64,000 nt of DNA from an uncultured bacterium (GCA_963729625.1 CAVSOU010000011.1:448001-512000), one strand, 5' to 3'; counted from the first letter of the stretch, positions 2,061 through 63,114 are shown. Notes: generated by a model not told the origin, from the sequence alone. Numbers and translations are program-made.

Positions 2061-2073
2061 GGCGTTCTCCCGT

Positions 2074-4852: not shown

Positions 4853-5418
4853 CGGCCTGACGAGCCCCAGAAGGACTCCACGGTCTCGTGGTACGTCCGG
4901 TTAAGCGCGTCATACATGCGAGCATTTTCTATGGCCAGAGCACAGATATCGGCCAGGGCCTGCAGGAATTCCACCTCACCCGTACCAAATACGTGCTCTT
5001 CGCCCGTGTACACGCGCATGACGCCGATCGGCAGTCCGTGGCGGATGAGCGGCGCGCAAAGCACAGAAGTGATTCCCTCGCGTGCCAGCTCGTCGGGATA
5101 CTGAAGCCGTGTGTCGGTTGCCACGTTGCCAACCGCGACAGTCGCACCAAGCAGCGCCTCGCGATCAATCTTGCTTCCTGACACCTCGACGGCGCCTTTG
5201 TTCAAGTATTTTTCACTCAGACCGAACGAGCTCACCAGTTCCAGTTGGTTGCCGCCCTCGTCCAGAAGCCTGATCGAACTGGCCTTAGCCCGCATCGCCC
5301 CGGCAACACTTTGCACGACCGCACTCAGCGTGTCGCGTAGATCGAGTGAGGAATTGACGAGGCAGGCGACGCGGTACAGCGCACGATAGTATGCATGCTC
5401 ATCAGTCTGCACGGACAT
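4849..5418 (-). CDS. stand-alone GAF domain protein
   Basis: NSSLDLRDTL..SIRLLDE..SVLCAPLI..IGVMRVY..EVEFLQALADICALAIENARMY; ATG 5418 with a GGAGGGG RBS. The longer ORF in the track is an unlikely extension. Confidence 0.85.
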   Translation of the reverse strand: MSVQTDEHAYYRALYRVACLVNSSLDLRDTLSAVVQSVAGAMRAKASSIRLLDEGGNQLELVSSFGLSEKYLNKGAVEVSGSKIDREALLGATVAVGNVATDTRLQYPDELAREGITSVLCAPLIRHGLPIGVMRVYTGEEHVFGTGEVEFLQALADICALAIENARMYDALNRTYHETVESFWGSSGR

Positions 5419-19841: not shown

Positions 19842-19969
19842 CATCGCGAACGTAGCCCGGAGCGCATGACTCGCGTACAGTGGTAGTATCGAGTATTGTC
19901 ACCGAGTGTGCTTCACGCGAGGTGCGCGCGGTTCGACGGCCCAGTTTCCCGAAGAATGAGGTCTCCGTG

Positions 19970-22900: not shown

Positions 22901-24658
22901 GCGCAGAGTCTGAACACATCGCAACCCCTGGATATCGAGCTGGACGACTCGGCATACGGCTCGTACGCCGCTTTCGCTCGGCGAGCGGAGGTAAGCCTCG
23001 GCGGGCGCGTCAGCACGGGCGATTCGGCGACCATACAGGGCGATAACCTGCCTATCGGCCAGTACTTCATCAGCGTCTCGTTGCCCAGCGGTGCGCGGGG
23101 GGGCCAGATCTACGTCGCGTCCAGCACGCAGGCCTACGCTCTGTCGCCACAGCCATGGATCAAGCTGGACGCACAGCGCCACGTCGACGGAACCTTCAGT
23201 CAGAACTTGCTTGTGGCGCGACCAGGCGGTGTCGTCACGTTCCATGGCCAGGTCGCGGTTCCCGGGACCGTGGCTCCTGGCACCTACCACGCCCTTGTAT
23301 ACATCTACTCATATCGCGATGACCGAGTTGGCGTGGTTCCGCTTACGATCGCGGTGCTGCCTGCTCAACCAGCCCCGGCACCAACACCCGACCCGTTGCT
23401 TGCTACGGTTGCGTCGGCGCAGTACTTCCCCGAGGGTGCCTCGGCGCCCGGAGTACGGGACCAGATGGACCTGGTAAACCCGGGTTCGCTAGACGCCCAC
23501 GTGCAGATCCGTTTGATCAACGATGGCGGCTGGACGACGCTGTCACGCTACGTGCTTCCCGCCCACACTAGGAAGACGGTCAACGTGCAACCGCTCATAG
23601 GGGACAACCAGGTCATCGCGGCGGTCGTGCAAGCAGATCAGACGATCATCAGCGGCCGCCAGATACTGAGAAGCGGCGAGGCCGGCTCATATTCGGTAGG
23701 CACACAGAGCCCGGGCACTAAGTGGTACTTCGCGGACGGCTACACGGTGGGAAGCTTTGCCGAATACCTTACCGTCGTCAATCCGGGCGCGACGCAGGCT
23801 CACGTTCATATGCACCTGGTGAGTGACTCCGGCGATACGCGGGTCGGCAACTTCACAGTTCCAGGCTCGTCACGGCGAACTGTCCAAATGAGCGACCTGA
23901 TGCCGGACAAGGCCTTGAGCGTCACCATCACCAGCAACGTGCCGGTGGTTGCCGAGCGCGTACAGCTCTTCGGCAACTTGGGACAGGGCGTAACGACGAC
24001 CGTTGGCGCCCAGTCGGGCAGCACCGCGCAGTACATCGACCCCGGCCACCTGCCTGCAAGCGCGCAAGGGCATATCGTGATCTACAACCCTGGTGGCAAG
24101 CCGGCCAGTATCTCAGTCACGCCGATCGATCAACACGGACGGGCGAGAGCCACAGTACTGCTGAGCATCAAGGCTGGACGGCGCGCGACGATCGACCTCA
24201 GGGCGTTGTACCACACGGCCAATCTCGGCGCTGAAATAGCCAGCAATGTGCCGGTCGTGGCGGAGAAGGCGGCGTATTACGGGCGTATCGCGCAGTCGGT
24301 AGTGGGCGGTAGCGACCTGCTTGGACTCGCCTCCGCGGTGTCGCAGGTGGTCTTCCCAGGTGGGACAACGGCGAGCGGCGCTTCCAATTATCTCAACCTC
24401 TACAACCCGACTGCGAACCCGGAGAGCTTATCCATAATCGCGATCTTTGGTGGGTACCGGCAGGTGCATCGGACGGTGACCGTGCCCGCGGAAACACGGC
24501 TCAGCCTGAGCGTCTCCAGTCTGGGCGTCCCGACCGGTTCAAGCAGCTTGATTGTGCGCGGCGCCCAGGATGCGCAGTTTTTTGCAACACAATCGCTCTT
24601 CAACCGCGCCGGAACGGACGGTTCGGAACTCAGCGGTGTCAGTCTGACCGGGCAGTAA
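19970..24658 (+). CDS. secreted S8 (subtilisin-like) serine peptidase with a long beta-rich C-terminal region
   Basis: Signal-like N-terminus; catalytic triad VAVIDSG / GHGTACAG / GTSMATP; C-terminal repeated units starting YFPEG, WYFADG and VFPGG with SNVPVVAE. Confidence 0.88.
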   Translation: MHARTRLVARAVAAAVVASAAFPALISRGSVLRSMRAPAAHAMPVEVRGYSPALLDQAAAHSVPMIFLLKPGSVSSAESVIRTLTQAGASNISQLSLIGGISANVGQPALDALRYDGRLASVQPDQIMQPEPIPNLAQMQDQEAHAQVTAGGAVPFTQTVVSEPDTLSIIHADLAQEQFTGRNVRVAVIDSGIDLSHPDLQGVMLMGSDGKPLYKDFTNTDLTDTIGHGTACAGTIVAQGKTLYSATDTYSRYLYPALKPGERQSDRTYFTTTGVAPGVKLMVAKVFDSRADASTSGFVRAIQWAIQNHADIISESWGAPDLYYAGNNVTALADEQAVQHGITVVVASGNAGPGASSTESPGSLPDVITAGASTDYRQYAETGFYTRYGLYGSDSIAAFTSEGPTLDGRVRPDIFAPGAFGWATFPHTPSVDGPTTKPYTIGSFGGTSMATPVTAGVAALVINAYRDTHGGTGPTPAHVKQILQSSADDLGYGAQDQAAGRIDAYRAVEMAGHRGASVLLSGPITLEGLPGQHLSQTMTLTNTGQVSETVLVQPQVTHQTQALSFGGTVVADNAVAYHFRVPAGTTVLKGSATFSSQRTVPIPGEPAQDVILQIALYDPHGNLANAEQSFVADPSSPVQSASGYAGTTAARPLPGTWTAVVSQAPRRGANQVRHYVSVPFTGHINLFNFASSSSVVSPSSFTLRPGEVKHIQYKTGALGGPGVSEVTVHVREHALAPLADSPVASTSAITPTDAVESIPAIVTSDIAVARGVGAFSGSFTGGIGTQGFARETRFYNFSVPSGVHSAQVAIAWHHQGNLFLLGLIDPSGKINNAVDNAFVNSDGSLDLTHPVVEAYLTDPTPGTWRIVFMSLTYDGLYTSEPYKGAVLLDQPQLRASATSLTVTAGGSASKFSIAVRNTGVAPDGYYSYATSDQYTYLALGGNGGSLQAGLSVGVGATSTLTYTTSFVPPGTREVITQAQSLNTSQPLDIELDDSAYGSYAAFARRAEVSLGGRVSTGDSATIQGDNLPIGQYFISVSLPSGARGGQIYVASSTQAYALSPQPWIKLDAQRHVDGTFSQNLLVARPGGVVTFHGQVAVPGTVAPGTYHALVYIYSYRDDRVGVVPLTIAVLPAQPAPAPTPDPLLATVASAQYFPEGASAPGVRDQMDLVNPGSLDAHVQIRLINDGGWTTLSRYVLPAHTRKTVNVQPLIGDNQVIAAVVQADQTIISGRQILRSGEAGSYSVGTQSPGTKWYFADGYTVGSFAEYLTVVNPGATQAHVHMHLVSDSGDTRVGNFTVPGSSRRTVQMSDLMPDKALSVTITSNVPVVAERVQLFGNLGQGVTTTVGAQSGSTAQYIDPGHLPASAQGHIVIYNPGGKPASISVTPIDQHGRARATVLLSIKAGRRATIDLRALYHTANLGAEIASNVPVVAEKAAYYGRIAQSVVGGSDLLGLASAVSQVVFPGGTTASGASNYLNLYNPTANPESLSIIAIFGGYRQVHRTVTVPAETRLSLSVSSLGVPTGSSSLIVRGAQDAQFFATQSLFNRAGTDGSELSGVSLTGQ

Positions 24659-40227: not shown

Positions 40228-40370
40228 AGGCATGGACCACATCGCACATAGAACTGCCGGACACCTTGGGGTCCACGATGCGTCGCGCGCGTCCTTGGCG
40301 GGCCGCTGCCTCGGCGCATGCCGGCGGTCGGCATCAGGAGCGCACGAGCGTGCGCTCGGGAGGAAGGCAT

Positions 40371-42392
40371 ATGTTTGCCAATGGTAGCGGCGAACCGGGC
40401 GAAACCGCGGAGCCGCAGACGTCTCGTACGTTGAGGGACTTCGCGCAGCGACGCATGCGCGTGGCTGCGTGCCTGGACGAGTTGGCGCAGATAAATGAGG
40501 AAGCTGGTCAGCACGGGCGCGCCGAACGCATTCGCGAACAGTCGACTGCAATCTCGAGCCAGCGCTTCACACTCCTTGTTCTCGGCGAGTTCAAACGCGG
40601 CAAGTCAACGCTCATCAACACCCTGCTGGGGAGCGACATGCTCCCTATTGGCGCGGCGCCGACCACCGCTGTCCTGACCAGGGTCAGCTACGGCGATGAC
40701 GTGTCAGCCAAGCTGCTGCTGGACGACGGCAGCGAGCGGGTGGTGCCAATCGAGCGGCTGGCCGACGAGATCACGCTTGTGCAGACAGATGAGGCGGTCA
40801 ATCAGCGGCGCCTGGCCGGGATCGTGCGCGCGGAAGTCACGGTGCCCGCGGCGATCTGCCGGAATGGCGTCGACATTGTCGATTCACCAGGCCTCGGTGA
40901 ACATGCGAGGCGTACCGAAGTGACGCACCAGGCGCTGCCGGCCGCGGATGCCGTTGTCTTTGTCTCCGACGCCGCGCAACTGGGTAGCGAGGACGAAGGC
41001 TTCGTCCGCGCTCGTCTCGCCAACGAAGATATCGACAACGTGTTCTTCGTGATTAACAAGTGGGATCGCGTGTACAACGAGTCAGAAGATCCCGATGCCG
41101 AGATCGCGGCCCTCAGCAGGCGAGCGTGGTCGCTCTTCGTGCCCGAGCCGAAGGTAGGCTTCAACGGACAGGATCTGCGAGCACACCGCATCTACCCAAT
41201 CTCCTGCCGGCCAAATCTGGCCCCGGAGGAGGAGCGTGCTGGCTTGCGGGCGAAGTTTGCCGCGTTCTCCGCCGACCTGGAGGGCTTTCTCGTTGAGGAA
41301 GCAGGCCGCGTGGCACTGGAACGCTCGGTGGCTCGCGGCCGAGCCCTGGCAGCGGAGACTATTGCAGGCCTGCGCGCCCGCGGACCTGCTCTGGCAGCGG
41401 GTATCGATGAGTTCGAGCGCCGCGTGCAGGCCGCGGAGGAGGCCCTGCGCAAGCTGGAGGGCCCGCGCCAGTCAATCCGGGATAAGATTGCCGTGCGGCG
41501 CCAGACTGTCCGGGACGAGGTGCGCGTGCGAGCTACCACGGACCTGCCGCGCATCGAGGTGGCTATAAAGGAGGAGTTCACCGCGTTTGAGTTCCGGCCG
41601 CGAAAGGAATGGCCGCAGCGCATTGCAGACGGCATGCAGGATAGCTTCCGACGGCAGCAGATCCGTGATGAGCTTCGCGTAAAAGTTCGCGAAATCGCTA
41701 TCGCGAAGCTGGAGCCCTGGGCGTCCGGGCTCAACACCTTCGTCGAAGGGCAGCTCAAGTCCCTTGCTGAAGAAGTGGCTGTCGAGGGTATGCACGTCGA
41801 GGCCACGCTCCGCGAGGCGACACGGATCTTGAGCGGCCTCGATCACCCCGGGGACACGAGCAACCAGGACCAGGAGGACATGCTCAAGCGTGGGATCGCC
41901 GCGGGCATTGGCGTCATTCTTCTGGATCCGTTCCTGATATTCTCCGGAAGTATGCACGGATTCAAGGGACTCGGTCGAACGCTGCTGTACCAGTTGGCGG
42001 CGGCTATGGTTGGCGTGGCCGTTGGACTTCCCTTGCTGCCGGTACTGGTCGTAGGCGCTGCCGTAGCGACCGTACAGAACAATGACGAGCTGATCGGCGA
42101 TCTGAAGAGCGATGTCGAGAAGGAGGTCCTCGAGCGCCTTCAGTCCATGCACACGACCGCCCTGGGCGACCTGCAGAACCAGGTGGCGGAGCCGCTGGAC
42201 ACGGCGGCGGTGGCAATCGAGAAGGAAATCGGCGCGCGAGTCGCCGACCACAGGGAGACTGTTGCGACGCTCCGCAAGCAGTTTGGAACCGCCCAGCAGG
42301 ACACCGAGCGCGAGCGCCAGCGCCTGGAGCAGGCGCAGGTGAGCATCGTGCACATCGTCGCACGACTCGAGAGTATAGGCATTGGCAATTGA
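40371..42392 (+). CDS. bacterial dynamin-like GTPase 1 (with a hydrophobic paddle)
   Basis: G1 GEFKRGKS, G2 PTT, G3 DSPG, G4 NKWD; helical stalk; hydrophobic segments GIAAGIGVILL and AAAMVGVAVGLPLLPVLVVGAAVA. Confidence 0.88.
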   Translation: MFANGSGEPGETAEPQTSRTLRDFAQRRMRVAACLDELAQINEEAGQHGRAERIREQSTAISSQRFTLLVLGEFKRGKSTLINTLLGSDMLPIGAAPTTAVLTRVSYGDDVSAKLLLDDGSERVVPIERLADEITLVQTDEAVNQRRLAGIVRAEVTVPAAICRNGVDIVDSPGLGEHARRTEVTHQALPAADAVVFVSDAAQLGSEDEGFVRARLANEDIDNVFFVINKWDRVYNESEDPDAEIAALSRRAWSLFVPEPKVGFNGQDLRAHRIYPISCRPNLAPEEERAGLRAKFAAFSADLEGFLVEEAGRVALERSVARGRALAAETIAGLRARGPALAAGIDEFERRVQAAEEALRKLEGPRQSIRDKIAVRRQTVRDEVRVRATTDLPRIEVAIKEEFTAFEFRPRKEWPQRIADGMQDSFRRQQIRDELRVKVREIAIAKLEPWASGLNTFVEGQLKSLAEEVAVEGMHVEATLREATRILSGLDHPGDTSNQDQEDMLKRGIAAGIGVILLDPFLIFSGSMHGFKGLGRTLLYQLAAAMVGVAVGLPLLPVLVVGAAVATVQNNDELIGDLKSDVEKEVLERLQSMHTTALGDLQNQVAEPLDTAAVAIEKEIGARVADHRETVATLRKQFGTAQQDTERERQRLEQAQVSIVHIVARLESIGIGN

Positions 42393-44643
42393 CCTTGAAA
42401 CGTTGCGGGCGACAGTCCTGGCGGAGGTGCCCTGGCATCCCGCCAGGACTGTCGCCGGCACGCTGCGATTCCAGGGCGATAACCTCGTCGTCGAGCCTCG
42501 CAGTGCCGACGATCAATGGGTCGAGCTACCGGTAACGACGATCTCGCGTGCAGCCATGGAGTCGACACTTGGCATGCTTCCAGTGCTTCGCGTGTGGCAC
42601 ACGGCTCACGGCGGCGAACAGGAGTCGCGTTTTGCATTCAGCGCGGCCGGCGATCACGATGACCGTTCGCAGGATAACGGCGGTCCAGGACTCTCCGACC
42701 GCATTGGCCCTGGCGTCGCGCGTGATGCGGCCCAGGCGATCGAGAGCGGTTTCCGTGTGCTGACCAGCGGGCTCAGCCTTGGCAAGCGGACCGCGCGGCA
42801 GGCGGTGGAGGGACTTGCACGGCACGAGGAATACCAGCAGTGGCCGGCAGCCATCGCCCAGGCGCAAGAGCAGGCCAAGAAGCGGCCACACGGACAAGGA
42901 TCCCCCCAGGCGCCGGCGGCCGTGCAGGAGCCGATCGTGCCGCCCAATGTGCAGCCTCCGACGGGGAACGCGATCGAGCAATTCGCGTGGTTCCGCGAAC
43001 GAGTGCCTGGGTGGCTGGCCGTGTGCAGCCGGCGCGCGCGTGAGTTAGGTGTGCACGGCGTACCCGTGATCCAGCCGATGTATCCGCTCGACAGCGACAC
43101 GTGCAGAATTGTGGTCATCGGAGAGTTCAGCCGCGGTAAGTCCACGCTGATCAACGCGCTGTTTGGCATTCATGGGGAGATCGCGCTCCCGACGGGCATG
43201 ACTCCGACCACGCCAATCGCATTCGCCCTGCGCGTACCGCGCGTTGGCGAAGTAGACGGCGCCACAATCACGTACCGTACGCGCCGCCAGCCGCTTGAGC
43301 TGACGCTGGACGAGTTCCGGCAGGCGGCGCGATTGGTGGACGACGATCGGCTTGCCGGACATGAATCCGCACCAGACCCAAATTTGCAGGAAGCCAGACG
43401 GGTAGAGGTCCGCATTACTGGCGCCTACCTTCCGTCAGGTGTGGAGATCGAAGATACGCCGGGGTTGAACGAGCAATCCGGCAGATCGGCGGGCGCGCTC
43501 TCCGCACTCGGACGAGCCGACCTGATCCTCTTCGTTCTCGCGGCCGATCAATTGCTCGGGGATCTCGAACGCGACGTGATTACCAACACGCTGATCAAAG
43601 AGCATCACCGAAACGTGCTGTTTCTTGTGAATTTCTGGGATAACGTGCTGGATGAACATGAGCGGGAGAACCTGAGGACACGAGCTCGCGCCATCCTCGC
43701 CGACTTCCCGAGCCCCTTTCGGCGCACCACCGGCGCTGCGGAGAGCGGCGAACAGCTTGGCGACGTCTTCTATGTGTCGGCGCTTCAAGCCGCCCGCGCT
43801 CAGCGCCAGCGTAAGTCGGCGCCTGACGAATCCGGCATTCCGCTCTTGCGCGCGCGCTTGCGTGAGCTCGTGGGCCCCGAATCGCACGCTATGCTGTTGC
43901 GTGCGCGGGCAGGACGAGCGCGCAGGTTCGTGCGGATTCTTCGCAACGTCGTGTCGCGGTCGACCGCCGAGCGGAGCGCGCGCGCCCACGGCGCTGCACG
44001 GCCAGCCACCACGGGTGAACAAGCGGGCGTAGCCGCCGTCGCGGCGAAACGCGTCGCAGCCGGTCTCCCGGACGCCATGCTCGGCGCCACCGCACGGTTG
44101 CAGGCCGGACTTGAACAGGGCACGGTTGGCAGCCTCGACCGGTTGACTGAGCGCCTGGCCATGGCGCGCGCGACCGAGCATGCGATTCGGATTGATGATG
44201 AGCTCAGGCGCGCGCTGCTTGCTGAGTTCCGAACTGTGGCCGCGGACTACGCAAGAGCCGCCCAGGCCGCATTGGACCTGGTCGTTGCCCGCGCGCGCGC
44301 CGCGTTTCTGCAACATGGGTTGACGCCGCCTGCCTTCGACGTGCACCTGGCGCCCATGAGCCTTTCGTTGCCCCCCGACGCGGAACCCGACCTCCTCCTG
44401 GCTACGGCTCGAGGTGCTTCCCGCCTGCTGCGAGAAGATCTTGAGCGACAGTCGGCGTCGCTCACCGCGGATCTGCTGCGCATGTGCGATGAGCACCCGC
44501 GCACCGCTCAAGCGTCTGCCGGGAATCTGGACACCGAGCAACCATCGAGGTCCGGCGCGGACGCACTCGCCCATACCGCGGGACTGCGGCTGCTCGAGGA
44601 GGACCTGCTCCGACTCGACGACCTGCTTGCCCGGATGACCTGA
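42382..44643 (+). CDS. bacterial dynamin-like GTPase 2 with a long N-terminal extension
   Basis: G1 GEFSRGKS, TPTT, DTPG and G4 NFWD; the TTG start overlaps the end of the upstream gene. Confidence 0.85.
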   Translation: MAIDLETLRATVLAEVPWHPARTVAGTLRFQGDNLVVEPRSADDQWVELPVTTISRAAMESTLGMLPVLRVWHTAHGGEQESRFAFSAAGDHDDRSQDNGGPGLSDRIGPGVARDAAQAIESGFRVLTSGLSLGKRTARQAVEGLARHEEYQQWPAAIAQAQEQAKKRPHGQGSPQAPAAVQEPIVPPNVQPPTGNAIEQFAWFRERVPGWLAVCSRRARELGVHGVPVIQPMYPLDSDTCRIVVIGEFSRGKSTLINALFGIHGEIALPTGMTPTTPIAFALRVPRVGEVDGATITYRTRRQPLELTLDEFRQAARLVDDDRLAGHESAPDPNLQEARRVEVRITGAYLPSGVEIEDTPGLNEQSGRSAGALSALGRADLILFVLAADQLLGDLERDVITNTLIKEHHRNVLFLVNFWDNVLDEHERENLRTRARAILADFPSPFRRTTGAAESGEQLGDVFYVSALQAARAQRQRKSAPDESGIPLLRARLRELVGPESHAMLLRARAGRARRFVRILRNVVSRSTAERSARAHGAARPATTGEQAGVAAVAAKRVAAGLPDAMLGATARLQAGLEQGTVGSLDRLTERLAMARATEHAIRIDDELRRALLAEFRTVAADYARAAQAALDLVVARARAAFLQHGLTPPAFDVHLAPMSLSLPPDAEPDLLLATARGASRLLREDLERQSASLTADLLRMCDEHPRTAQASAGNLDTEQPSRSGADALAHTAGLRLLEEDLLRLDDLLARMT

Positions 44644-45757: not shown

Positions 45758-46861
45758 TTGGCTCCTAGGCAATTCGATTTCACGCCAATACCGCAGCCCT
45801 CCGCTCCGGTTCGCGACCACGCGTTGACCGCAAGCTCCGACGGGTCGCAGCCGCTGATGGCAGCGCGCCTTGTCCCTCTGGACCGGCTCGTAGCCGACCC
45901 GGACCAGCCCCGGAAGACGTTCGGCGAGGAGGGGCTGCAAGAGTTGGCAACCTCGCTTCGTACCGCAGGCATGCGACAGCCGATTACCGCCTACTACGAT
46001 GACAGCCGCGAAGCATTCGTAGTGATCAGCGGTGAACGCAGGCTAATCGCCGCACGGGCCGCCGGCCTCACCCATGCCCCAGTGCTGGTTGAGCATCGAC
46101 CAACGTCGGACGCTGAGAAGCTCGTGCTGCAGCTTGCCGAGAACCTGGTACGCGAGGACCTAACGGTGCCGGAGGCGGCGCGCGCACTCTCTCGCCTGAG
46201 GGAGCTCAGGCCGTCAGACTGGCTGGAGGTGGCACGACAGCACGGTATCGGCCGGCGAAGAGCGTACCAGTATTTGGAACATCTCTCCGACCCACCTATC
46301 TTGCAGAGGGCGCTGGCCGGCAATGCGATCAGCGAAGGTCATGCCGCCGAGCTACGCCGCATACCAGTCGATCGCCTCCCGGACATGCTCAGGGAAGTCA
46401 TCGAAAACCATCTCAGTGTCGCGAACACCCGGCTGCTCATCGCGGCGACGAAGGCAGTGGCGCCGACCCCGAGCCCCGGGACATCGGCTGCGCTGGTTGA
46501 ACCGGCAGGCACACGCGTAGACGAGCCAAGTGATGATCTGTTGAGCGATGCGCCTTCGGCCGGCGAGATCGCCGAGGTGCTCAGACCCGAGTCCGCAGCC
46601 TGGTCCAAAGCGGTGAGCGGCACCGACATCCGGCGCGATAAGGCGAGGCGGGAACGGATGCGCCGTCTGCGGCTGCGCCTCGAACGCATTGCATCCGAGC
46701 TCCGAAACGCCCACGTGGACGAGATCGCCGCTGACCTGGACGCACTGCCCGAGATTATCATACAGGCACGGGAAGCCCGCGCCGGCCTGGATCGCTTCAT
46801 CGCACTGCTCGAGCGCGTCCGGCTTGATCGCGCCGAGCCGAACGAACCTGCCATCGAGTAG
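45758..46861 (+). CDS. parB: ParB/Spo0J family partition protein
   Basis: DPDQPRKTF, LQELATSL..GMRQPI, SGERRLIAA (CTP-binding motif), ENLVREDL and an HTH; TTG start after GAGGAG. Confidence 0.88.
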   Translation: MAPRQFDFTPIPQPSAPVRDHALTASSDGSQPLMAARLVPLDRLVADPDQPRKTFGEEGLQELATSLRTAGMRQPITAYYDDSREAFVVISGERRLIAARAAGLTHAPVLVEHRPTSDAEKLVLQLAENLVREDLTVPEAARALSRLRELRPSDWLEVARQHGIGRRRAYQYLEHLSDPPILQRALAGNAISEGHAAELRRIPVDRLPDMLREVIENHLSVANTRLLIAATKAVAPTPSPGTSAALVEPAGTRVDEPSDDLLSDAPSAGEIAEVLRPESAAWSKAVSGTDIRRDKARRERMRRLRLRLERIASELRNAHVDEIAADLDALPEIIIQAREARAGLDRFIALLERVRLDRAEPNEPAIE

Positions 46862-52766: not shown

Positions 52767-54491
52767 TTACATCAGCGTAATATGCATCGTGGGATCCACG
52801 CGATGCTCGTCACGGTCGTAGTAGGCCCACACGAGGACAGTTTGTCCCGGATTGAGCGACGTCACATCATGGCTCGTTTGGTTGTGGCGAAGGTAAATAA
52901 TCGTGCTCGGCTGTACGAAGACGGTCAGGGTCGTGCCAGTCCTGAACGGATTGTTGCGGTCGTTGAATCTCACGGTCCGCACCGCCAGGAACTCAGGCGA
53001 CGACGTGAAGTTGATGAACGTGATCTTGGCCTTGAATCGGACCTGCACCAGGTTTGCCAGCGAGGCATCCTTGATCCACGTCGCGGTGAACTGTGCGTTC
53101 ACGAACGTGCCTCTGATCTCCAGCCTGTTGTTCGAGTGCAGATAGCTGACCGGGATCGTGTTGCCGTTGTTACGAACAATCACCGTGCTGGGCGTTACGT
53201 AGACCGGAAGCTGGCCGGGCCGGCACGGACTGGTCATGGCAAGGTTCGGTGAGAGTCCGCCGGTGAACCGAGCCGACTTGATGCACAGCAGGGTCGGAGG
53301 CGTGTTTGGATTCGCCGGAGCGTTGAGCAACCCGGCGAGAGCGATAAGCCCGCTCACCGGTGCCGCAGTGGCGGTCGCCGTCGGCACCGGGGTCGCGGTC
53401 GGCCCAGCGCCGAGCGCGCTGCCCGTCGTGATCCACGAGATATATTCAAACGCGTTGAGCGCGCTGTTGTACAGGCCCTGCGTGGTTACGACAGAACCCG
53501 GACCAATGCCGCCGACGGGATAACCGGAGGTCGCGGCGCCGTTGATGTTGACGGCGGTGCAGGGCGCCTGTGTGTTCGACGGAGCGGTGCAGAACACGGT
53601 GCCGGCGTTGGTCAGGGGCAACGTGAACTGCCCGTTGCTGGGAACCGGAGAATGACTCGAGTTCAGGCTGGTGACCATCACGCTCAGAACCGTCAACGGC
53701 GAACCAACGGCGACGCTCTGCACCGAGCCGGTGAACTGGGTATAGGTCAGGTGCAGCGAATGATCGTCGAGGCTGGCGGCAGTGAACTGCGCGTTGACAA
53801 AACTGCCATGAACTTCCAGCGAATCGCCGGCTCGGAGCTCGAACAGGGCCGAGACACTGTCGTCATTGCGCGTCAGCTTTGTGGTGGGCGTGATGTACAC
53901 CGGCAGCAGGCCGGGCGCGCACGGACTGACCAGAGAGACATTGGGAGTGATACCGCCCACTACCTGTGCCTTGGCGAGGCAGAGCAGAGTCGGGGGCGTC
54001 AACTGGTCGGGCGCCGCGAAAAGTGTTCCCGTCACGTCGAGCTGCGATAGCACCTGCGTTGGCGAGCTAGTCGGGGTCGCGCTGACCGTCACGGTTGGCG
54101 TGGGGACAACGACCGTACCGGTCGCGGTTGCGGTCGGAAGCGGCAAGAGCGACAGATCCTGAATGACGCTGGCGGTGATACCGCCGTTCCTATCGACTAC
54201 GCCTGTGACCTTGAGCGAGTCGTTATCATGCAGGTCCGTCAGATTCGCCGGCGATCCATCTTGTCGCTCAATTTGCGTGCTCACGGAGATCCAGACGGGA
54301 GCTGTCTCGCTGCCCTCCTGAATAAACAGGGACGTCGGTGCAGTTGGCTGCGGCATCGCCACCATCGTGGCCGTGATCGTAATGTTCGCGAGTTGCGCTG
54401 CCGAGACATGAGATGCCGATGGCAGAAGTGGCACTGCTGCGAAAAGCAATGGAGCAAACGCAAGTCCCGTAAGTAACCGCTTGGCGTTCAT
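52767..54491 (-). CDS. secreted protein with repeated DUF5666-like OB/beta units and PT-rich linkers
   Basis: Signal peptide; repeated V(Y/W)(I/V)xxxT..R....L..(G/N)(D/N).L.(V/I).G....TA units; two copies of PPTLLC..SPC.PG.LPVY. Confidence 0.7.
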   Translation of the reverse strand: MNAKRLLTGLAFAPLLFAAVPLLPSASHVSAAQLANITITATMVAMPQPTAPTSLFIQEGSETAPVWISVSTQIERQDGSPANLTDLHDNDSLKVTGVVDRNGGITASVIQDLSLLPLPTATATGTVVVPTPTVTVSATPTSSPTQVLSQLDVTGTLFAAPDQLTPPTLLCLAKAQVVGGITPNVSLVSPCAPGLLPVYITPTTKLTRNDDSVSALFELRAGDSLEVHGSFVNAQFTAASLDDHSLHLTYTQFTGSVQSVAVGSPLTVLSVMVTSLNSSHSPVPSNGQFTLPLTNAGTVFCTAPSNTQAPCTAVNINGAATSGYPVGGIGPGSVVTTQGLYNSALNAFEYISWITTGSALGAGPTATPVPTATATAAPVSGLIALAGLLNAPANPNTPPTLLCIKSARFTGGLSPNLAMTSPCRPGQLPVYVTPSTVIVRNNGNTIPVSYLHSNNRLEIRGTFVNAQFTATWIKDASLANLVQVRFKAKITFINFTSSPEFLAVRTVRFNDRNNPFRTGTTLTVFVQPSTIIYLRHNQTSHDVTSLNPGQTVLVWAYYDRDEHRVDPTMHITLM

Positions 54492-54997: not shown

Positions 54998-57900
54998 TTG
55001 AAGGGAAAAACTGTTCGTGTTGCCGTGTTGGCGGCGTTGCTCCCCACCACAGGCTTGACGCTCGCATTCTCGTTGCCAGGCATCAGTACTCCACCAACAC
55101 TTGACGGTCGTGTTGTACTGGTCTCAAGAGGCACCATTACCACCACGCTGACGCCGTCCGGTCAGGCCGCAAACGTGACGACCTACTCGTTGAATTTCTC
55201 GGCCTCGGGCACGGTCAAGTCAGTCAACGTCGTACCGGGTCAGTCGGTCAAGAAAGGCCAGGTTCTTGCTTCAATTGACGATCCATCGTTGCAGCTATCG
55301 CTGATCAGCGATCGGAACGCGCTGAACAATGCTCAGCTGGCTCTGGCAAAGCAACTCGCTCCCCCGAATCCGAACTCACTTGTCCAGTCCCAAGCGTCGC
55401 TCGATCAGGCTCAATCCAAGCTGGCCGCTATGAAGGCAGGCGGCACCGCCGCCTCCATCGCGCAGGCCCGCGCCAACGTGGACTCCGCCAAAGCCAAGCT
55501 CGTGGCGCTGCAATCGGGCACGGCCTCCGCGATCATCTCTGCACAGGCCAGTCTTGATTCCGTTCAACAGAAGCTGGCCGCGATGGAAGCCGGAGGCACC
55601 GCCTCCAGCATCGCCCAGGCGGAAACGACGCTTGCTACGGCCCAGGCCAAGCTGGCAGCCATGCAGACCGGCGGTACGTCCGCGAGCGTCACGCAGGCGC
55701 GTCAAGCGCTCGACGAAGCCAAGACGAAGCTTGCGGTGATGAAGAAAGGCGGCACCCCCGCCAGCATCGCCCAGGCCCGGTCGTCCCTCGAACAGGCCCA
55801 GCTCAAGCTTGCCACAATGAAGAAGGGTGGTACGCCTGTCAGCATTGCGCAGGCCAGGGCTGCACTCGACCAGGCGCAGCTCAAGCTGGCGACTATGGAG
55901 AAGGGTGGCACGTCGACCAGCGTCACCCAGGCCAGGGCTGCGCTCGATCAGGCCCAGCTCAAGCTGGCCACGATGCTCAAGGGCGGTACCGCGGCAAGCA
56001 TCGCCCAGGCCAAGTCATCGCTCGACCAAGCCCAGCTCAAGCTGGCCACGATGCTCAAGGGCGGTACCGCGACCAGCATCGCCCAGGCCAGAGCTTCGCT
56101 CAACCAGGCGCAGCTCAAGCTGGCCACGATGCTCAAGGGCGGTACCGCGACCAGCATAACCCAGGCCAAAGCATCGCTCGATCAGGCGCAGCTCAAGCTG
56201 GCCACGATGCTCAAGGGCGGTACCACGACCAGCGTAGCCCAGGCCAAAGCATCGCTCGACCAGGCACAGCTCAAGCTGGCCACGATGCTCAAGGGCGGTA
56301 CCACGACCAGCATCGCCCAGGCCAGGGCGTCACTCGACCAGGCACAGCTCAAGCTGGCGACCATGAAACAGGGCGGTACCCCGGCCAGCATTGCCCAAGC
56401 CAAGGCATCGCTCGAACAGGCCCAGATCAAGCTGGCGACCATGAAGAAGGGCGGAACGCCGGCCAGCATTGCCCAGGCCAAGGCATCGCTCGAACAGGCC
56501 CAGATCAAGCTGGCGACCATGAAGAAGGGCGGCACCCCCGCCAGTATTGCCCAGGCCAAGGCATCGCTCGAACAAGCGCAGATCAAGCTGGCTTCCATGA
56601 AGCAGGGCGGCACCCCCGCCAGCATCGCCCAGGCCAAGGCATCGTTGCAACAGGCGCAGATCAAGCTCAACGTCATGCAGACGCCTCCTGATCCGCACAC
56701 CGTCGTAGCGGCAAAGGCCAACCTGGACTCAGCGATCCTGAAGCTGACGGCCCTCCAGGCTCCGCCGAACCCGCAGACCGTCGCCCAGGCACAGGCCAGC
56801 CTGGACTCCGCCAAGCAGAAGCTCATCGCCCTGCAAGCCGCTCCTGACCAGAACACCCTTGCTCAGCTTCAGGCGAGCCTGGACTCCGCCAAGCAGAAGC
56901 TCATTGCCCTGCAAGCGCCCGTCAATGCAAACACTCTGGCCTCCGCCCAGGCGAGCCTCGATAGCGCAAAGCAGAACCTGGCCGCGCTCTCCAACGCCGC
57001 GTCGTCGGCAACCGTCGCCTCCGACCAGGCAGGAGTGACACAGGCTCAGAACAATCTGAGCAGCGCGACGACTCCATCAGCTGCGTCGCTCGCCCAGGCG
57101 AATGCAACCCTTCTCGCGGCTCGAAATAAGCTGCAAGTGGATCAGGTCGCTCTATCGCTTCTCGTGCCACCCAACACAAGCGCCATCACCAATCCCACCG
57201 CGCTGCAGACCGCGACGAATACGTATCTGCAAAACCAAGCGCAGGATGAGGCGAATATCGCGAACGACGAGGCCAGCGTCGCGAGTGCGACGGCAGCGTA
57301 TACCGCGCTGACCAACCCGAGCGCCGGCGCGCTGACCCTGGCCCAGCAGCAGTTGACCGCCGCCCAGGCCAAGCTGGCAGCCGACCAGCAGCCAACGCCA
57401 AGCTCGACGGACCTGGCAAAAGCGCAGGACGCCGTCACCCAAGCCCAGGCGTCGCTCGCCAACACGCAGGCCGGCACCACGACGCCGTCCGATATTGCCT
57501 CCGCGCAGGATGCCATCACCTCCGCGCAGGCCTCGCTCAACGCGGCGACCGCCCCGCCGAAGGCTACGGACCTGGCCACGGCTCAGGACGCTCTTGTTTC
57601 CGCGGAGGCCTCGCTCACGACTGCGACGGCACCGCCGGCAGCTACCGACATCGCCTCCGCCCGGGACGCGATCAACTCCGCGAACGCCGCGGTGTATACG
57701 GCGGAGCATCCATACACTGCGCAAGACATCGCGACACAGCAGTCCACGGTGACAAGCGCCGAGGCAGCATACAAGAACGCCCTGCAACCCAACTCGGCGT
57801 CGGATATCGCCACACAGGAACAAGCGGTCAAGACCGCGCAGGTGGCCTATCAGAATGCGCTGCAGCCTAACTCCGCGTCGGACATCGCCACGCAAGAGCA

Positions 57901-59794
57901 AGCGGTCAAGAGCGCGCAAGTAGCCTATCAGAATGCGCTGCAGCCTAACTCGGCGTCGGACATCGCCACGCAAGAGCAAGCGGTCAAGAGCGCGCAAGTA
58001 GCCTATCAGAATGCGCTGCAGCCTAACTCGGCGTCGGACATCGCCTCGCAGGAGCAGGCCGTAGCCGGCGCCAAGGCTGCCTACCAAAACGCCCTGCAGC
58101 CCAACTCTCCGTCCGACATTGCCACCCAGGAGCAGGCCGTGGCCAGCGCCAAGGCCGCCTACCAGAATGCTTTACAGCCTAACTCGGCGTCGGACATCGC
58201 CACCCAAGAGCAAGCGGTCAAGAGCGCGCAGGCCGGCTACCAGAATGCCCTGCAGCCCAACTCGCCATCCGACATCGCCACGCAGGAACAAGCCGTGGCC
58301 AGCGCCAAGGCCGCCTACCAGAATGCCCAGCAGCCTAACTCGCCATCCGACATCGCCACGCAGGAGCAAGTGGTAGCCAGCGCCAAGGCCGCCTACCAGA
58401 ACGCCTCGCAGCCCAACGCAGCGTCGGACATCGCCACACAGGAGCAAGCGGTCAAGAGTGCGCAGGCCGCCTATCAGAATGCGCTGCAACCCAACTCGCC
58501 TTCCGACATCGCCACGCAAGAGCAAGCGGTCAAGAGCGCGCAAGCCGCCTATCAGAACGCCCTGCAGCCCAACTCGGCGTCGGATATCGCCACGCAGGAA
58601 CAGGCCGTGGCCAGCGCGCAAGCCGCCTATCAGAACGCCCTGCAGCCCAATGCGGCCTCCGACATTCGACAGGCGCAGGACGCGGTAACCAGCGCGGAGG
58701 CGGCGTTGGCATCTGCCAAGCAGCCGAACTCTGCCTCGGACATTACCCAGCAGAAGCTCGCAGTACAGAGTGCGCAGGCGGCCTTGGCTGCAGCCAGGCA
58801 ACCGAACACCACATCGGATATCCAGCAAGCGCGAGATTCGGTCACCTCGCAGCAACAGGCGCTCATCACTGCCCAGCATCCCGGCACCGCGACGGATATT
58901 CAGCAAGCTCAGGATTCGTTGATCAGCGCGCAGGCAGCGCTCGACTCGGCCGTCCAACCGAACACCGCGCAGGATATTGCCCAGCAACAAGATGCCGTGA
59001 AGAGCGCGCAGGCGGCGCTGCAGCTGGCGCTTCATCCCTACACCGCGCAAGACATCGCCATCTCGCAGGCGAGCGTCACGGAGGCGCAGCAGTCATTGAA
59101 GGCTGACCAAGCGCTGTTCGCCAGTGAAACGGATATCGTGGCGCCGAGCGCCGGGGTGGTCCAGGTGGTGAACCTTTCGCCCGGACAGGCGTCGTCCAGC
59201 GCCAGCAGTAGCAGTAGCAGCACCAGCACCAGCACCGCGGCCATCCAGATGGCCGATACCAAGGGTCTTGTGGTGACGGCAAGCATCCCTGAAGCCCAGA
59301 TTGGCAGCATACAGCTTGGCGATCCGGTGGCGATGGTCTTCAACGCGTTCCCCAACAGAACGCTCGTCGGCATCGTCAACAGCCTGCCCTTCCAGGCGAC
59401 CACCACGTCGAACGTTACCACCTACCCGATCAAGGTTTCTCTGACGGGGAACCTCAAAGGCATTACGGCCGGCATGACCGCGAACATGACCATTGTCACG
59501 GCGGAGGTGACCAACACGATCGAGGTGCCCACCGCGGCGATTGTCGGCACCGGCACCCGCAGCTTTGTCCGCACACTCGATAAGACGAATAACGAGGTGA
59601 TAACGCCCGTCCAGACGGGAATCAGCGACACAACCTTCACGCAAATCGTCAGCGGCTTGAACGTTGGCGACCGGATCGTCGTACCGACCACCAGCGGCTC
59701 CACCACGACGGGTACCGGCGCGGCCCGCGGCTTCGGTGGCGGCGGCGGCTTCGGCGGCGGAGGCTTCGGCGGCGCCGTACGGATTGGCGGCTAA
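54998..59794 (+). CDS. giant efflux membrane-fusion (periplasmic adaptor) protein with a repeat-expanded alpha-hairpin
   Basis: N-terminal anchor; lipoyl halves [28 protein letters not shown] and [18 protein letters not shown] flank about 1280 aa of helical repeats; C-terminal barrel/membrane-proximal motifs [14 protein letters not shown] and [18 protein letters not shown]; GGAGG RBS with a TTG start. Confidence 0.9.
55748..56683 (+). repeat. 12 x 78-bp tandem repeat (26 aa, [26 protein letters not shown]), ascending hairpin limb
   Basis: Counted from the translation and checked on the DNA; more diverged units extend on both sides. Confidence 0.9.
57710..58645 (+). repeat. 12 x 78-bp tandem repeat (26 aa, [26 protein letters not shown]), descending hairpin limb
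   Basis: Counted from the translation and checked on the DNA; five diverged units lie on each side. Confidence 0.9.
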
Positions 59795-60636
59795 TGGTCA
59801 TGCAACCGACGTCGCTTATCGAGATGCAGCAGATCACCAAGACGTACGTCATGGGCGATCAGGAGGTGCATGCGCTGCGCGGGATCGATCTCCGCATCGC
59901 CGAAGGGGAATTCGTGGCGATCATGGGAGCCTCGGGCAGCGGAAAATCCACCATGATGAATATCGTCGGCTGTCTGGACCGCCCATCTTCCGGCCAGTAC
60001 TACCTCGCGGGCAGGGAGGTGGCGACGCTCAGCGACGATGAACAGGCGCTCATGCGCAATCGTACCATCGGGTTCGTGTTCCAGTCGTTCAACCTGCTCA
60101 GGCGCACAAGCGCCCAGAAGAACGTGGAGCTACCACTCATCTACTCGGGCGTACCTGCCCGCGAGCGTGCGGAGCGCGCCAGGGCTGCCCTCGAGCAGGT
60201 CGGCCTTGGCGCCAGACTCGACCACCATCCTAGCCAGCTCTCGGGCGGGCAGCAGCAGCGCGTGGCGGTGGCAAGAGCGCTGGTAACGAACCCGGCGCTG
60301 ATCCTTGCCGACGAGCCTACCGGCAATCTGGACTCTCAGGTCAGTGCTGAAGTAATGAGTCTCTTTCAAAGACTGAATCTCCGCGGCCTGACGGTTGTGC
60401 TTGTCACGCACGAGAGCGACATCGCGGCCTACGCAAAACGCGTCGTTCGCATGCGCGACGGCCACGTGATGCACGACAGCCAGCCCGATGCCGCGAGAGT
60501 GCCCGAGAGTGCAGTCGCGCTGGGCGAATCCCTGCCGACTACTACGCCGTCGCCCGATGCTCCGGAAGCGCCGGCCGATTCCGGCATGCACCCGTTGCTC
60601 ACGCGTATCTCGCTCGATCGGGAGGGTCCGGCATGA
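59794..60636 (+). CDS. MacB/LolD-type ABC transporter ATP-binding protein
   Basis: [38 protein letters not shown] and VTHE; TAATG overlap with the adaptor gene. Confidence 0.93.
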
Positions 60637-61967
60637 ACCCTGCAGGGCAAATCAGGCAGACGCAAAAGCCGTCGCGCAAGGCGCCTCGTATCACGTTCGT
60701 TGGTCAGGCCCTGTCGGTGCTGCACATCGCCACGACAGGCATATTCACAAACAAGGCCAGGACGGTTCTGACCCTGCTTGGCGTCATCATCGGCGTTGCG
60801 TCGGTCATCGTGGCCGTCGGCATCGGCAATGGCTCTGCCACACGGGTCAACAGTCAACTGAGTGCGCTTGGCACGAATCTCGTGCAGATACAGCCCGGAG
60901 GGACATTCTCCGGCGGCGTCCGCGGGGGCGCCGGCTCGGCCAGCACCCTGACCGTCTCCGACGCGCAGACCCTTGCCGACAGCTTGGGTTCGGGCGGCAC
61001 GTTGCCTGACGTGGCCATGGTGGCGCCGGAGTTCAACGTAAACGTGCAGATCGTGGCAGGAGCCCAGAACACGGGCACATCGGCGGACGGCGTATCGCCC
61101 GAATACCTTACGGTGCGCAACGCTCAGGTAGCAACGGGCCGTTTCGTCACCACGCAAGACTTGATGCAGCAGGCGCAGGTCGTCGACCTGGGAGCGACCG
61201 TGATCACCGATCTCGGTCTCGACGCGTCCAGCGCGGTTGGGTCGACGATCACGCTGAGCGGTGTACCGTTCACCGTCATCGGGACGATGGTCTCCAAAGG
61301 AGGCGGGGGAGGGCGCAACCAGGATGATACCGTGTACGTGCCGCTCACCACGGCCGAATACGTGTTGCCGCATTCGTCCGCATCCGGTTCCCTGTCCTCG
61401 ATCGATCTTGAAGCAACACAGCAAGACACCACGAACCAGGCATGGACCGAGGCCGAGTCGATGTTGCGCGGCCTTCACCACCTCCTGTCCTCTCAGAGCG
61501 ATGACTTCAGCGAATTCAACCAGACGACGATTCAGCAGACGGCGGCAGACGTGTCCGGAACGCTGACGACGTTGCTAGCCGGCGTGTCGGCTTGCTCGCT
61601 CCTGGTCGGCGGCATCGGGATCATGAACATCATGCTCGTCACCGTAACCGAGCGCACGCGTGAAATAGGGCTGAGAAAAGCGGTCGGTGCGAGGAAGATC
61701 GACATCCTGTCGCAATTCCTCGTCGAGGCAATCATGATCAGCGGGACCGGCGGCGCTATCGGAGTCGGTATCAGTTTCCTGGTGGCCTGGATGTTTAACA
61801 ATATCTCGACTCTCGCCACCGCGTTTGGAAACTCCGCACCGGTGATCAGTCCGAATTCGGTGATTCTGGCGTTTGGCGTGTCGCTGGCCATTGGTCTGTT
61901 CTTTGGCAGCTATCCCGCCAGCCGCGCCGCCGCACTCGATCCCATCCAGGCCTTACGTTACGAGTAG
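60633..61967 (+). CDS. MacB/FtsX-type ABC transporter permease
   Basis: [48 protein letters not shown] and [18 protein letters not shown]; ATGA overlap. Confidence 0.93.
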
Positions 61968-61989
61968 TCATCCTCTGGAGAAAGAAACG

Positions 61990-63114
61990 ATGAACCAGGG
62001 CACAAAGCTGAATATCAGAACGGCAAGCGTCGTGCTTGTCTTCGTGCTTGCCGTCGGGCTGGCGTTCTACGGCGGCCGCGTGTATCAGAACAACGTCGAT
62101 AAGCCGCTGTTCACCCAGTACAATCCGCCAACTACCACTGGTGGCACTGGCGGCGCGTCTGGGAGGGGGAGCAGCTACTTCGGCGCGGTGTCGTCCGGTG
62201 GCTCGCAAATCCAGGCAGCTCTCGCCTATGCCACGCCGCCAGGCAGCACGACCTCCCAGAGCGGCGGCACGGCGAACGGCACATCGGGAGGCCAGACCGG
62301 TACCGGTGCGACGGGAGGCCAGACCGGTACCGGTGCGACGGGCGGTCAGGGCGGTACCGGTGCGACGGGTGGTCAGGGCGGTACCGGCGCGACGGGTGGT
62401 CAGGGCGGTACCGGTGCGACGGGTGGTCAGGGCGGCAGTGGCACAACTGGGGGTCAATCCACCGGCGCTGCGACCGATTCAACCGAGGTGGCCGGCACCC
62501 TCGTCAGCTTGGCCAATGGGAAGCTGACAATCAAGACGAGCCAGGGCGCCAATCAGACCGTGTCCACGACCGCGTCGACGACGTACTATGACGCGCAGAA
62601 GGCAACCAGCAGCGCAATTACCAAGGGTCAAAACGTGACCATCAGTATGGCCGCAAGCGGCTCCTCGCAGGGATTTAGCGCGGGTGACATCACGATCGCG
62701 CCGCCCGGCGCCCTCTACGGCTACGTCAAGCAGCAGGCGCCTGCGGCCGGAGGATTCGGTTTCTCGCCGGCCGGCACTGTCGTGTCCCTGAGCGGCAGCA
62801 CGCTAACCCTGCAGACCAGTACCGGCCGCAGCCTGTCGATCTCGATCGACAATTCCACGGCGGTCTACCAACTGGTAAAGACGACCAGTAGCGCCATCCA
62901 CGCCGGAACAACGGTCTCGGCGCTCAAGGACACGAGCGGCGCCACGGCCCTCAATGTGGTGGCATGTTCATTGGATGGCATGGTCGCCTCGCTCACGACT
63001 CCTCGCGCACGCGGCGCGGGAGGTTTTGGCGGGGGCAGCGGCGGCACTGGAGGCTATGGCGGTCAGGGCGGCCAGGGCGGCGGCCAGAGCAATCCGAACG
63101 GGAACGGCAGCTGA
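61990..63114 (+). CDS. membrane-anchored Gly/Thr-rich protein with two DUF5666-like domains
   Basis: N-terminal TM ending AFYGG; two GT.VSL.....TL.T..G....S....T..Y......SAI..G..V units; last gene of the ABC operon. Confidence 0.75.
   Translation: MNQGTKLNIRTASVVLVFVLAVGLAFYGGRVYQNNVDKPLFTQYNPPTTTGGTGGASGRGSSYFGAVSSGGSQIQAALAYATPPGSTTSQSGGTANGTSGGQTGTGATGGQTGTGATGGQGGTGATGGQGGTGATGGQGGTGATGGQGGSGTTGGQSTGAATDSTEVAGTLVSLANGKLTIKTSQGANQTVSTTASTTYYDAQKATSSAITKGQNVTISMAASGSSQGFSAGDITIAPPGALYGYVKQQAPAAGGFGFSPAGTVVSLSGSTLTLQTSTGRSLSISIDNSTAVYQLVKTTSSAIHAGTTVSALKDTSGATALNVVACSLDGMVASLTTPRARGAGGFGGGSGGTGGYGGQGGQGGGQSNPNGNGS
62287..62448 (+). repeat. 27-bp tandem repeat, about 6 copies (GGQ(T/G)GTGAT)
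   Basis: Read directly in both the DNA and the translation. Confidence 0.85.

Follow-up and report, generated by a model that had tools for sequence, protein, structure and literature searches.

Here we report a putative export operon with a giant adaptor from an uncultured bacterium, located in a 64,000-nt stretch of its genome (GCA_963729625.1 CAVSOU010000011.1:448001-512000; the whole of this stretch is hereafter called the window). The operon comprises genes for a membrane-fusion (periplasmic adaptor) protein, an ATP-binding cassette (ABC) ATPase, a permease and a fourth protein (Table 1). The main new result is that the two limbs of the adaptor's alpha-hairpin appear to pair in register and to have expanded in matching steps. 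Stop and start codons overlap at both junctions, as TAATG (59792-59796) from adaptor to ATPase and as ATGA (60633-60636) from ATPase to permease. For both the ATPase and the permease the best NCBIfam match was the MacB equivalog. These overlaps and the Pfam and NCBIfam assignments to MacB families bear out the translational coupling to a MacB-type ATPase and permease that an initial annotation of the locus had proposed. The locus thus holds the gene set of a MacAB-type pump, an adaptor gene together with a MacB_PCD and FtsX permease and an ATPase. A scan for promoters and terminators returned sites no commoner than in shuffled sequence.

The adaptor gene is one unbroken frame of 4.8 kb (54998-59794, plus strand), and its TTG start codon is preceded by GGAGG at a distance of 7 nt; a paralogue in a related genome has a methionine at the matching position. 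The product is four times the usual size for pump adaptors. Pfam assigned Biotin_lipoyl_2 to aa 65-94 (34.9 bits, cut-off 29.8) and HlyD_3 to aa 1380-1485 (41.4 bits, cut-off 22.2), together with a sub-threshold match to HlyD_D23 (26.6 bits against 30). NCBIfam returned partial matches to RND_mfp, YbhG-type HlyD, EmrA, MacA and DevB, those to RND_mfp, MacA and YbhG-type HlyD lying under the curated cut-offs, and aa 1284-1563 aligned with model positions 23-308 of 322 in TIGR01730 (82.9 bits, subfamily cut-off 94.9). Among solved structures, Escherichia coli MacA came closest to the C-terminal 246 aa (E 1e-5; MacA residues 149-363 of 371). With the split lipoyl domain, the beta-barrel and the membrane-proximal domain all matched, the product is identified from its translation as a MacA/YknX-type membrane-fusion protein. 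Its Gly-rich tail was found in all orthologues. The two lipoyl halves, placed about 1280 aa apart in the initial annotation, are separated by an insert measured at 1286 aa.

Table 1. Features of the adaptor operon and of its upstream neighbour, with positions in the window.
Feature	Position	Strand	Basis
Secreted protein, 574 aa, three DUF5666 stretches	52767..54491	-	Pfam PF18914, E 1.1e-11
Giant membrane-fusion (periplasmic adaptor) protein, 1598 aa, TTG start	54998..59794	+	Open reading frame (ORF), translation, Pfam/NCBIfam
N-terminal hydrophobic membrane anchor, aa 1-30	54998..55087	+	Uncharged stretch in translation
N-terminal lipoyl half, aa 65-94	55190..55279	+	Pfam Biotin_lipoyl_2, E 1.3e-8
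Ascending (N) limb, aa ~100-720, about 23 helices of ~22 aa	55295..57157	+	Unit table, 26-aa spacing, DSSP of AlphaFold2 model
N-limb homogenised array, aa 248-557, 11.9 copies of 78-nt unit	55738..56667	+	Tandem Repeats Finder, 86% matches, no indels
Non-repetitive conserved tip module, aa ~695-800, turn aa 721-732	57080..57397	+	Invariant columns, model confidence, DSSP loop
Descending (C) limb, aa ~733-1379, about 24 helices, mostly Q-P-N-S separated	57194..59134	+	Unit table, 26-aa spacing
C-limb homogenised array, aa 926-1223, 11.4 copies of 78-nt unit	57774..58665	+	Tandem Repeats Finder, no indels
C-terminal lipoyl half, beta-barrel and membrane-proximal domain, aa 1380-1575, with Ser-rich insert	59135..59722	+	HlyD_3, HlyD_D23, TIGR01730, MacA alignment
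Gly-rich C-terminal tail, GFGGGGG repeats	59723..59791	+	Translation; 15/18-nt repeats
MacB-type ABC ATPase, 280 aa	59794..60636	+	ABC_tran
MacB-type permease, 444 aa	60633..61967	+	MacB_PCD + FtsX
Lineage-specific fourth gene, 374 aa	61990..63114	+	True start 61990, 22 nt past permease stop

As the initial annotation had described, the insert consists of 26-aa helical units broken by Gly-Gly or Pro. Units of the N limb contain GGT(P/A) and, further along, (D/E)QAQ(L/I)KLATM-KK, and are separated by GG-T-P breaks, which near the tip become P-P, the last four units before the tip having PP or AP in place of GG. The C limb has four xPPxxTD-type units beside the tip and five more divergent units at its base. 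The spacing of the breaks is exactly 26 aa over 13 consecutive intervals on the N limb (GG[TS]) and over 17 consecutive intervals on the C limb (xP[NYG]). We take the break residues to be helix caps, with the C-cap provided by Gly-Gly and the N-cap by the Thr-Pro that follows or by Pro-Asn-Ser. Towards the base of the N limb, a single 25-aa unit (aa 148-199, about 55439-55594) introduces a phase slip of one residue that is kept in all orthologues examined, where it is seen as a 51-aa double spacing (G001, G008 and G013) or as a 25-aa spacing (G002). DSSP assignment of the AlphaFold2 model gave a single helix of about 15-24 residues per repeat unit, with breaks of about 4-12 residues. Across five orthologues the invariant columns cluster in the tip, and because they do so where the predicted local distance difference test score (pLDDT) is highest, the tip is regarded as a distinct conserved module.

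Limb lengths were compared in six gene copies from five genomes and three genera, copies that are few and not independent; the three conserved landmarks were the point at which the N-terminal lipoyl half ends, the tip motif ANDxA, and (I/L)xAPxxG, with which the C-terminal lipoyl half starts. The N and C limbs measured 661 and 625 aa in the window, 583 and 546 aa in the intact copy of the congener G001, 583 and 547.3 aa in a second, frameshifted copy of G001, 504 and 467 aa in the congener G002, and 302 and 285 aa in both G008 and G013, which represent a sister family. Absolute limb length thus spans more than two-fold across the six copies while the difference between the limbs stays constant, at 36-37 aa in all four copies of the window's genus and 17 aa in both sister-family copies. 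Expressed in unit-lengths, the limbs of the three congeners comprise 25.4/24, 22.4/21 and 19.4/18 units. Pairwise global alignments within the genus gave indels that are all multiples of 26 aa, with equal totals on each limb. Between the window and G001 the N limb accounts for 52 + 26 aa (aa 311-362 and 437-462) and the C limb for 26 + 52 aa (aa 1001-1026 and 1079-1130), in mirror order and at roughly mirrored places; between the window and G002 the indels total 156 aa on the N limb and 156 aa on the C limb. The placement of gaps within the arrays is ambiguous, the totals are unambiguous. The collection of homologues and hairpin lengths proposed in the initial annotation, carried out here on these six copies, therefore yields limbs that co-vary.

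The second giant adaptor of G001 lies on the minus strand of another locus (L024, G001:C8, 6955-11248), has one frameshift near residue 780 and is followed by a permease gene with no ATPase gene between them. The C-terminal domains of the two G001 adaptors are 76% and 57% identical to that of the window, the second copy being the more divergent. With contamination of G001 estimated at 10%, two organisms may be the source of the two copies.

The unit sequences of the two limbs are complementary. The best conserved hydrophobic or small residues, which form the core, lie at positions 7, 10, 14, 17, 21 and 24 in N units (I A L A L M) and at 8, 11, 15, 18, 22 and 25 in C units (I Q V A Y A); these form antiparallel pairs whose sum stays at 32 (I:A, A:Y, L:A, A:V, L:Q and M:I), mostly with a large residue opposite a small one, and K20 of the N unit (18 of 20 units) stands opposite E12 of the C unit (11 of 17 units). 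The register, given as the sum of the paired residue numbers on the two limbs, is 1471 from the units, 1474 from the lipoyl boundaries and 1477 from the array midpoints; all three lie within 6 residues, where a random register would be expected anywhere within ±13 residues. The 3-residue offset recurs in G001 (1378 against 1381) and G002 (1288 against 1291), and the corresponding sums in G008 are 778 and 783. Subtypes are mirrored as well, with 12 array units on either limb: 12 N units with L/I at position 19 face C units whose position 13 is Q or S, their basal boundaries falling exactly together, and four PP-type N units (aa 561-664) lie opposite four xPP..TD-type C units (aa 800-903). The 7-residue break KKGGTPA comes to stand opposite the break QPNSASD, so that the breaks are level. 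A stagger of the breaks by half a unit, which would favour a stiff rod, was rejected on the basis of the core complementarity and the register of the domain boundaries. Antiparallel, in-register pairing of the two limbs is supported by these features of the sequences, namely lockstep lengths, mirrored indels and complementary cores, in agreement with the antiparallel hairpin that the initial annotation had assumed.

The host genome consists of 5.4 Mb in 21 contigs and is 87% complete, and the adaptor is its sole HlyD_3 match. The initial annotation had noted the lack of a TolC-like gene in the operon and in the window, and had suggested a host without an outer membrane. Both points extend to the genome: this 87%-complete, 5.4-Mb assembly gave 0 matches to OEP/TolC (PF02321), for which 7 of 14 control genomes were positive, and 0 matches each to Omp85/BamA and LpxC, for which control genomes were likewise positive. 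The system is predicted from its genes to work like a MacAB pump, yet not as a tripartite TolC system; because no TolC family gene was found, it is placed, with its MacA-like adaptor and split MacB, among the monoderm MacAB-like systems. The host probably belongs to the Chloroflexota: among named database entries, the proteins closest to the adaptor (a partial protein, 57% identity) and to the fourth protein (63% identity) both come from metagenome-assembled genomes (MAGs) named 'Chloroflexota bacterium'. Actinomycetota clusters were indicated instead by a feature search based on UvrC, which is no more than a lead. According to excerpts of three papers, several Chloroflexota have multilayered envelopes without genes for the beta-barrel assembly machinery or lipopolysaccharide, and the nature of the envelope in this phylum is still debated (PMC7332563, PMC13319060, PMC8871954). 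By analogy, a hairpin of the present scale would not be absurd for such envelopes.

At the level of the class, orthologues were found in 6 of 21 genomes, a tally that counts G018, and in neither of two fragmented congeners. Among 401 genomes of the phylum, 140 had an adaptor match at E<=1e-15, and frame lengths cover 150 of the 172 matches. Open frames of at least 900 aa were present in 37 of the 150 listed matches and frames of at least 1100 aa in four, three of which belong to the window's genus (1616, 1470 and 1365 aa); the fourth, of 1115 aa, has an ORF of 1023 aa with a long Gly/Asn tail. Frames above 1300 aa occurred in the window's genus (g1) alone among the matches listed from the 401 genomes. 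These tallies include G055, G226 and G271, which are flagged as unpublished and have no frame of at least 900 aa. The initial annotation had raised the question whether adaptors of this length are already common; above 1300 aa they are confined to the window's genus among the listed matches, and adaptors of 900-1040 aa are frequent in the phylum. On these sequences, segmented long hairpins are best described as a habit of the phylum, with the window's genus as its extreme and not as a singleton.

An exhaustive representative search returned fragments as the best relatives (298, 474 and 243 aa), the longest among the best 150 being 817 aa; the closest relatives are fragmentary probably because short-read assemblies break in the arrays. 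Related loci in genome contigs were distant (27-36% identity) and came mostly from MAGs of the candidate phyla radiation (Patescibacteria-type). Protein database searches limited to 878-2797 aa, in which about 8000 candidates with the greatest word overlap were scored, missed the window's own protein and are no measure of rarity. In an exact look-up, the window adaptor and two sister-family orthologues were not in the protein collection under these start codons.

Several other long adaptors came to light in these searches. The phylum adaptor L112 (1031 aa) resembles that of the window in the Gly/Pro-punctuated units on both limbs, the MacB-type operon and the Gly-rich tail, but its units are about 33 aa long by eye, against 26 aa here. 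The phylum adaptors of 900-1040 aa in general differ in an insert about half as long and in less homogenised arrays, and the database adaptors P0162 and P0164 (977 and 881 aa) share GGTP-type units. The 969-aa adaptor of locus L115 (G041:C1, ORF 2045-4954) has limb repeats of about 11 aa by eye (AREAVTAARDAVT / AAEREVAAAQREV), unlike the 26-aa unit. P0005 and P0006 (934 and 976 aa) carry three fibronectin-type-III-like repeats at the hairpin tip instead of more helix, and P0161 and P0169 (1534 and 1559 aa) combine adaptor-type Pfam domains with MMPL (PF03176), apparently as adaptor-transporter fusions.

Among characterized systems, the adaptor is like E. coli MacA (PDB 3FPP, 5NIK, 9QGY) in having a split lipoyl domain around an alpha-hairpin and a MacB-type ATPase and permease as partner. 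It is unlike MacA in that MacA has 371 aa and a continuous hairpin docking on TolC, whereas the present insert of 1286 aa is broken every 26 aa; unlike MacAB-TolC, the ATPase and the permease are encoded by separate genes and the genome yielded no gene of the TolC family. Separate ATPase and permease polypeptides are also found in Spr0693-0694-0695 and YknWXYZ, the latter having a fourth component too. The fourth protein of the window has a single hydrophobic anchor and no database family; YknW is polytopic. EmrA and HlyD illustrate that hairpin length is an evolvable parameter; their hairpins, of about 12 nm, run without interruption and terminate at TolC, whereas the window hairpin is segmented. 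An excerpt of a 2026 review calls the EmrA hairpin 'unusually long' (PMC13328181), and in the excerpted text of PMC4446572 adaptor hairpins vary by heptads, some with 'hairpin-extension' sections of paired helices. Excerpts of PMC5768738 and PMC8277102 describe Spr0693 of Streptococcus pneumoniae and YknX of Bacillus as hexameric nanotube adaptors without TolC in bacteria without an outer membrane, the former with an alpha-barrel 56 Å high in an assembly of ~154 Å (PMC5768738). Compared with Spr0693, the limbs of 625-661 aa would be up to about 17 times longer if straight. Searches of openly available main texts returned no description of an adaptor with several hundred residues per limb, of a 26-aa segmented hairpin or of matched limb expansion.

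The explanation that we consider best overall, with a probability of roughly 0.55, is a segmented MacA-type hairpin, six copies of which would be packed into a tube or stalk serving export without TolC. The adaptor would be anchored in the cytoplasmic membrane and have as its partner the MacB-type (type VII) ABC transporter encoded by the two downstream genes. Mirrored tandem duplication would have lengthened the alpha-hairpin to about 24 links, each formed by an ascending helix of ~22 residues lying antiparallel and in register with one descending helix and ending in short breaks at equal height, where GG-T-P of one strand faces Q-P-N-S of its partner. Selection would hold the limbs equal, so that the length of the hairpin could shift by whole links only, and the chain of links would hold the conserved tip far from the membrane. 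We prefer a packing in which six hairpins associate laterally on the transporter into a long segmented tube or stalk, by analogy with MacA, YknX and Spr0693, and this structure would pass a substrate over a thick multilayered envelope without TolC. The sequences show the membership of the family, the operon, the anatomy of the units and the pairing of the limbs; we infer the oligomer state, the straightness of the hairpin, its function as a conduit and the substrate.

For the length, 625 aa at 0.15 nm per residue give about 94 nm, an arithmetic upper bound with roughly 24 links collinear, and about 1 nm per link gives about 25 nm with the links stacked side by side; the tip would accordingly be held at about 90 nm or about 25 nm. 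The initial annotation had derived a conduit or surface stalk of up to ~90 nm. Its arithmetic stands as a bound, whereas full extension, a tube and a conduit do not follow from AlphaFold2 models that are confident on secondary structure only. A more specific version of the preferred reading, a self-supporting, bamboo-like hexameric tube of about 90 nm with 24 stacked 4-nm rings, whose length would change in 4-nm quanta by matched gain or loss of units and would be fitted to the thickness that a multilayered Chloroflexota envelope has in each species, is accordingly put forward as tentative and, on balance, doubtful.

Several points weigh against the segmented tube or stalk. Both tertiary models are of low confidence: a tip-centred fragment of 925 aa (aa 275-1199 of the window adaptor, predicted from the single sequence) reached a pLDDT of 50.5 and a predicted template modelling score (pTM) of 0.22, and the whole 921-aa orthologue, predicted from a 5-row alignment, a pLDDT of 48.7 and a pTM of 0.25. 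In the fragment, DSSP places the tip loop at residues 447-458; in the orthologue only the tip (residues 340-430) attains a pLDDT of 76-88. The structure prediction suggested with the initial annotation thus returned an all-helical insert as expected, and no trustworthy overall shape. Prediction of a complex between parts of the two limbs (N limb aa 327-456, C limb aa 1018-1147) gave a score of 0.01 and is counted neither for nor against. Because the breaks are level on both limbs, each of the roughly 24 joints is, as far as the sequence indicates, a potential hinge, and with helices of ~22 residues rich in Ala and Gln a two-helix link alone would be marginally stable. The excerpted text of PMC4446572 gives in CusB an adaptor whose hairpin folds back on itself. 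Finally, with a genome that is 87% complete, the outer-membrane genes are to be called 'not found' and not 'absent'.

The alternative that survives best, possible though clearly less probable than the preferred reading, is a compact form in which the paired links fold back at the level breaks and stack as an alpha-solenoid or accordion of about 25 nm, or as a globular cap or cage. At the breaks, linkers of about 3-4 residues carry strong cap motifs (GG followed by T-P; P-N-S), as is typical of helix-turn-helix connections that are tight. In N and C units alike the core is bordered by small residues, as would suit a helix with several neighbours, and AlphaFold2 produced no confident rod. In excerpts of PMC4446572 the CusB hairpin forms a four-helix bundle; CusB is unlike the present adaptor in being short, with one fold-back, and in belonging to a resistance-nodulation-division-type metal pump of Gram-negative bacteria. 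Six bulky solenoids would be hard to fit on a hexameric ring of the MacA type as it is described in part in PMC5768738, and the conserved tip is easier to explain if it must reach something; neither point is decisive.

Less probable again, and in our view unlikely, is a role other than that of a conduit, in which the hairpin would be a tether, spacer or mechanical link through which the MacB-type motor moves or holds a distant layer or enzyme, its length matching the spacing of the layers. MacB-type motors act by mechanotransmission. The changes by whole links among the congeners and the conserved tip are consistent with such a role, as are the shared limb lengths of the two G001 copies (583/546 and 583/547 aa) despite their differing sequences, although with 10% contamination these may derive from two organisms. 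Among relatives of MacB, FtsEX and LolCDE act on extramembrane partners and not in drug pumping, according to an excerpt of PMC5768738. On the other side, the solved MacA-type adaptors all form channels, and the transmission of force over tens of nanometres through 24 jointed links would seem inefficient.

The public data on the arrays are short: the runs listed include no RNA run, six public DNA runs each contained at most 0.18 of the sampled words, and the listed contig pieces are of at most 384 nt with none across an array, so that the copy number is taken from the assembly alone. Contigs of run X1 gave eight short matches to array and non-array segments at >=99% identity, the array segments with 0 differences. 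Tandem arrays are error-prone in assembly, and one G001 paralogue is frameshifted with no adjoining ATPase gene. That the arrays are mis-assembled, as the initial annotation had considered, or that the gene is a decaying pseudogene is nevertheless very improbable, since the 4.8-kb frame is intact, the adaptor gene has no exact repeat of at least 100 nt, the mean DNA identity between units is 79-80% per array, and random collapse in three separate assemblies would not keep equal whole-unit changes on both limbs.

The fourth gene was syntenic at 5 of 5 complete orthologous loci. Its product is anchored by an N-terminal region containing the invariant motif YGGRxYQNN(V/I)D, and further comprises a low-complexity linker rich in Gly, Thr and Gln and encoded with 27-nt repeats, two small repeats of beta-rich character and a Gly-rich tail. 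Nine database relatives were found, none with an annotation. The initial annotation had called it an anchored DUF5666-like protein, and the anchor was recovered, the family was not. Pfam assigned no family to this protein, and a DUF5666 (PF18914) match was missing even at E<=1, both here and in its G008 orthologue; NCBIfam gave no match, and the PDB search gave a single chance-level row (E 0.77). Alignment with the upstream DUF5666 protein had a probability of 0.2% in hhalign, and BLASTP was empty. The Atlas feature comparison, in which DUF5666 made up the top three clusters (score 0.87-0.88, 172-178 shared features), was the one source of this pointer. The label fits the gene upstream of the adaptor more safely, on sequence grounds, than the downstream fourth gene. 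That upstream gene is divergent from the adaptor, with a spacer of 506 nt between them; a 67% identical gene lies at the equivalent place in G001, none at that place in G008, and the gene may be associated with the adaptor operon.

Gly-rich ends are present on both the adaptor (59723-59791, GFGGGG) and the fourth protein (63040-63111, GGYGGQGG), and Gly-rich C-terminal tails recur in the unrelated long database adaptors P0005, P0007, P0162 and L112. Elsewhere in the window, a second giant ORF (19880-24658, plus strand, 1592 aa) was considered as an adaptor and rejected, being a subtilase (Peptidase_S8) with a C-terminal DUF5719; it is preceded by an ABC ATPase gene (19098-19841). Tandem bacterial dynamin-like proteins are encoded at 40266-42392 and 42382-44643 (plus strand), with a ParB-like gene further on (45758-46861).

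These findings bear on the role of adaptor hairpins in bacteria that have no TolC to dock on, and on the debated envelope of the Chloroflexota. That two distant tandem arrays of a single gene have expanded together as strict mirror images is a clean case of structural constraint steering the evolution of repeats, and the 26-aa paired link could serve as a module for protein rods or tubes of set length. The orthologues, with about 11, 18, 21 and 24 matched links per limb, constitute a natural length series for electron microscopy as well as cryo-electron tomography. If the tube of about 90 nm is true, it would be the longest adaptor-only export conduit known, and hairpin length a molecular ruler of envelope architecture; if hairpin length tracks the thickness of the envelope, genomes alone would give the envelope dimensions of uncultured lineages.

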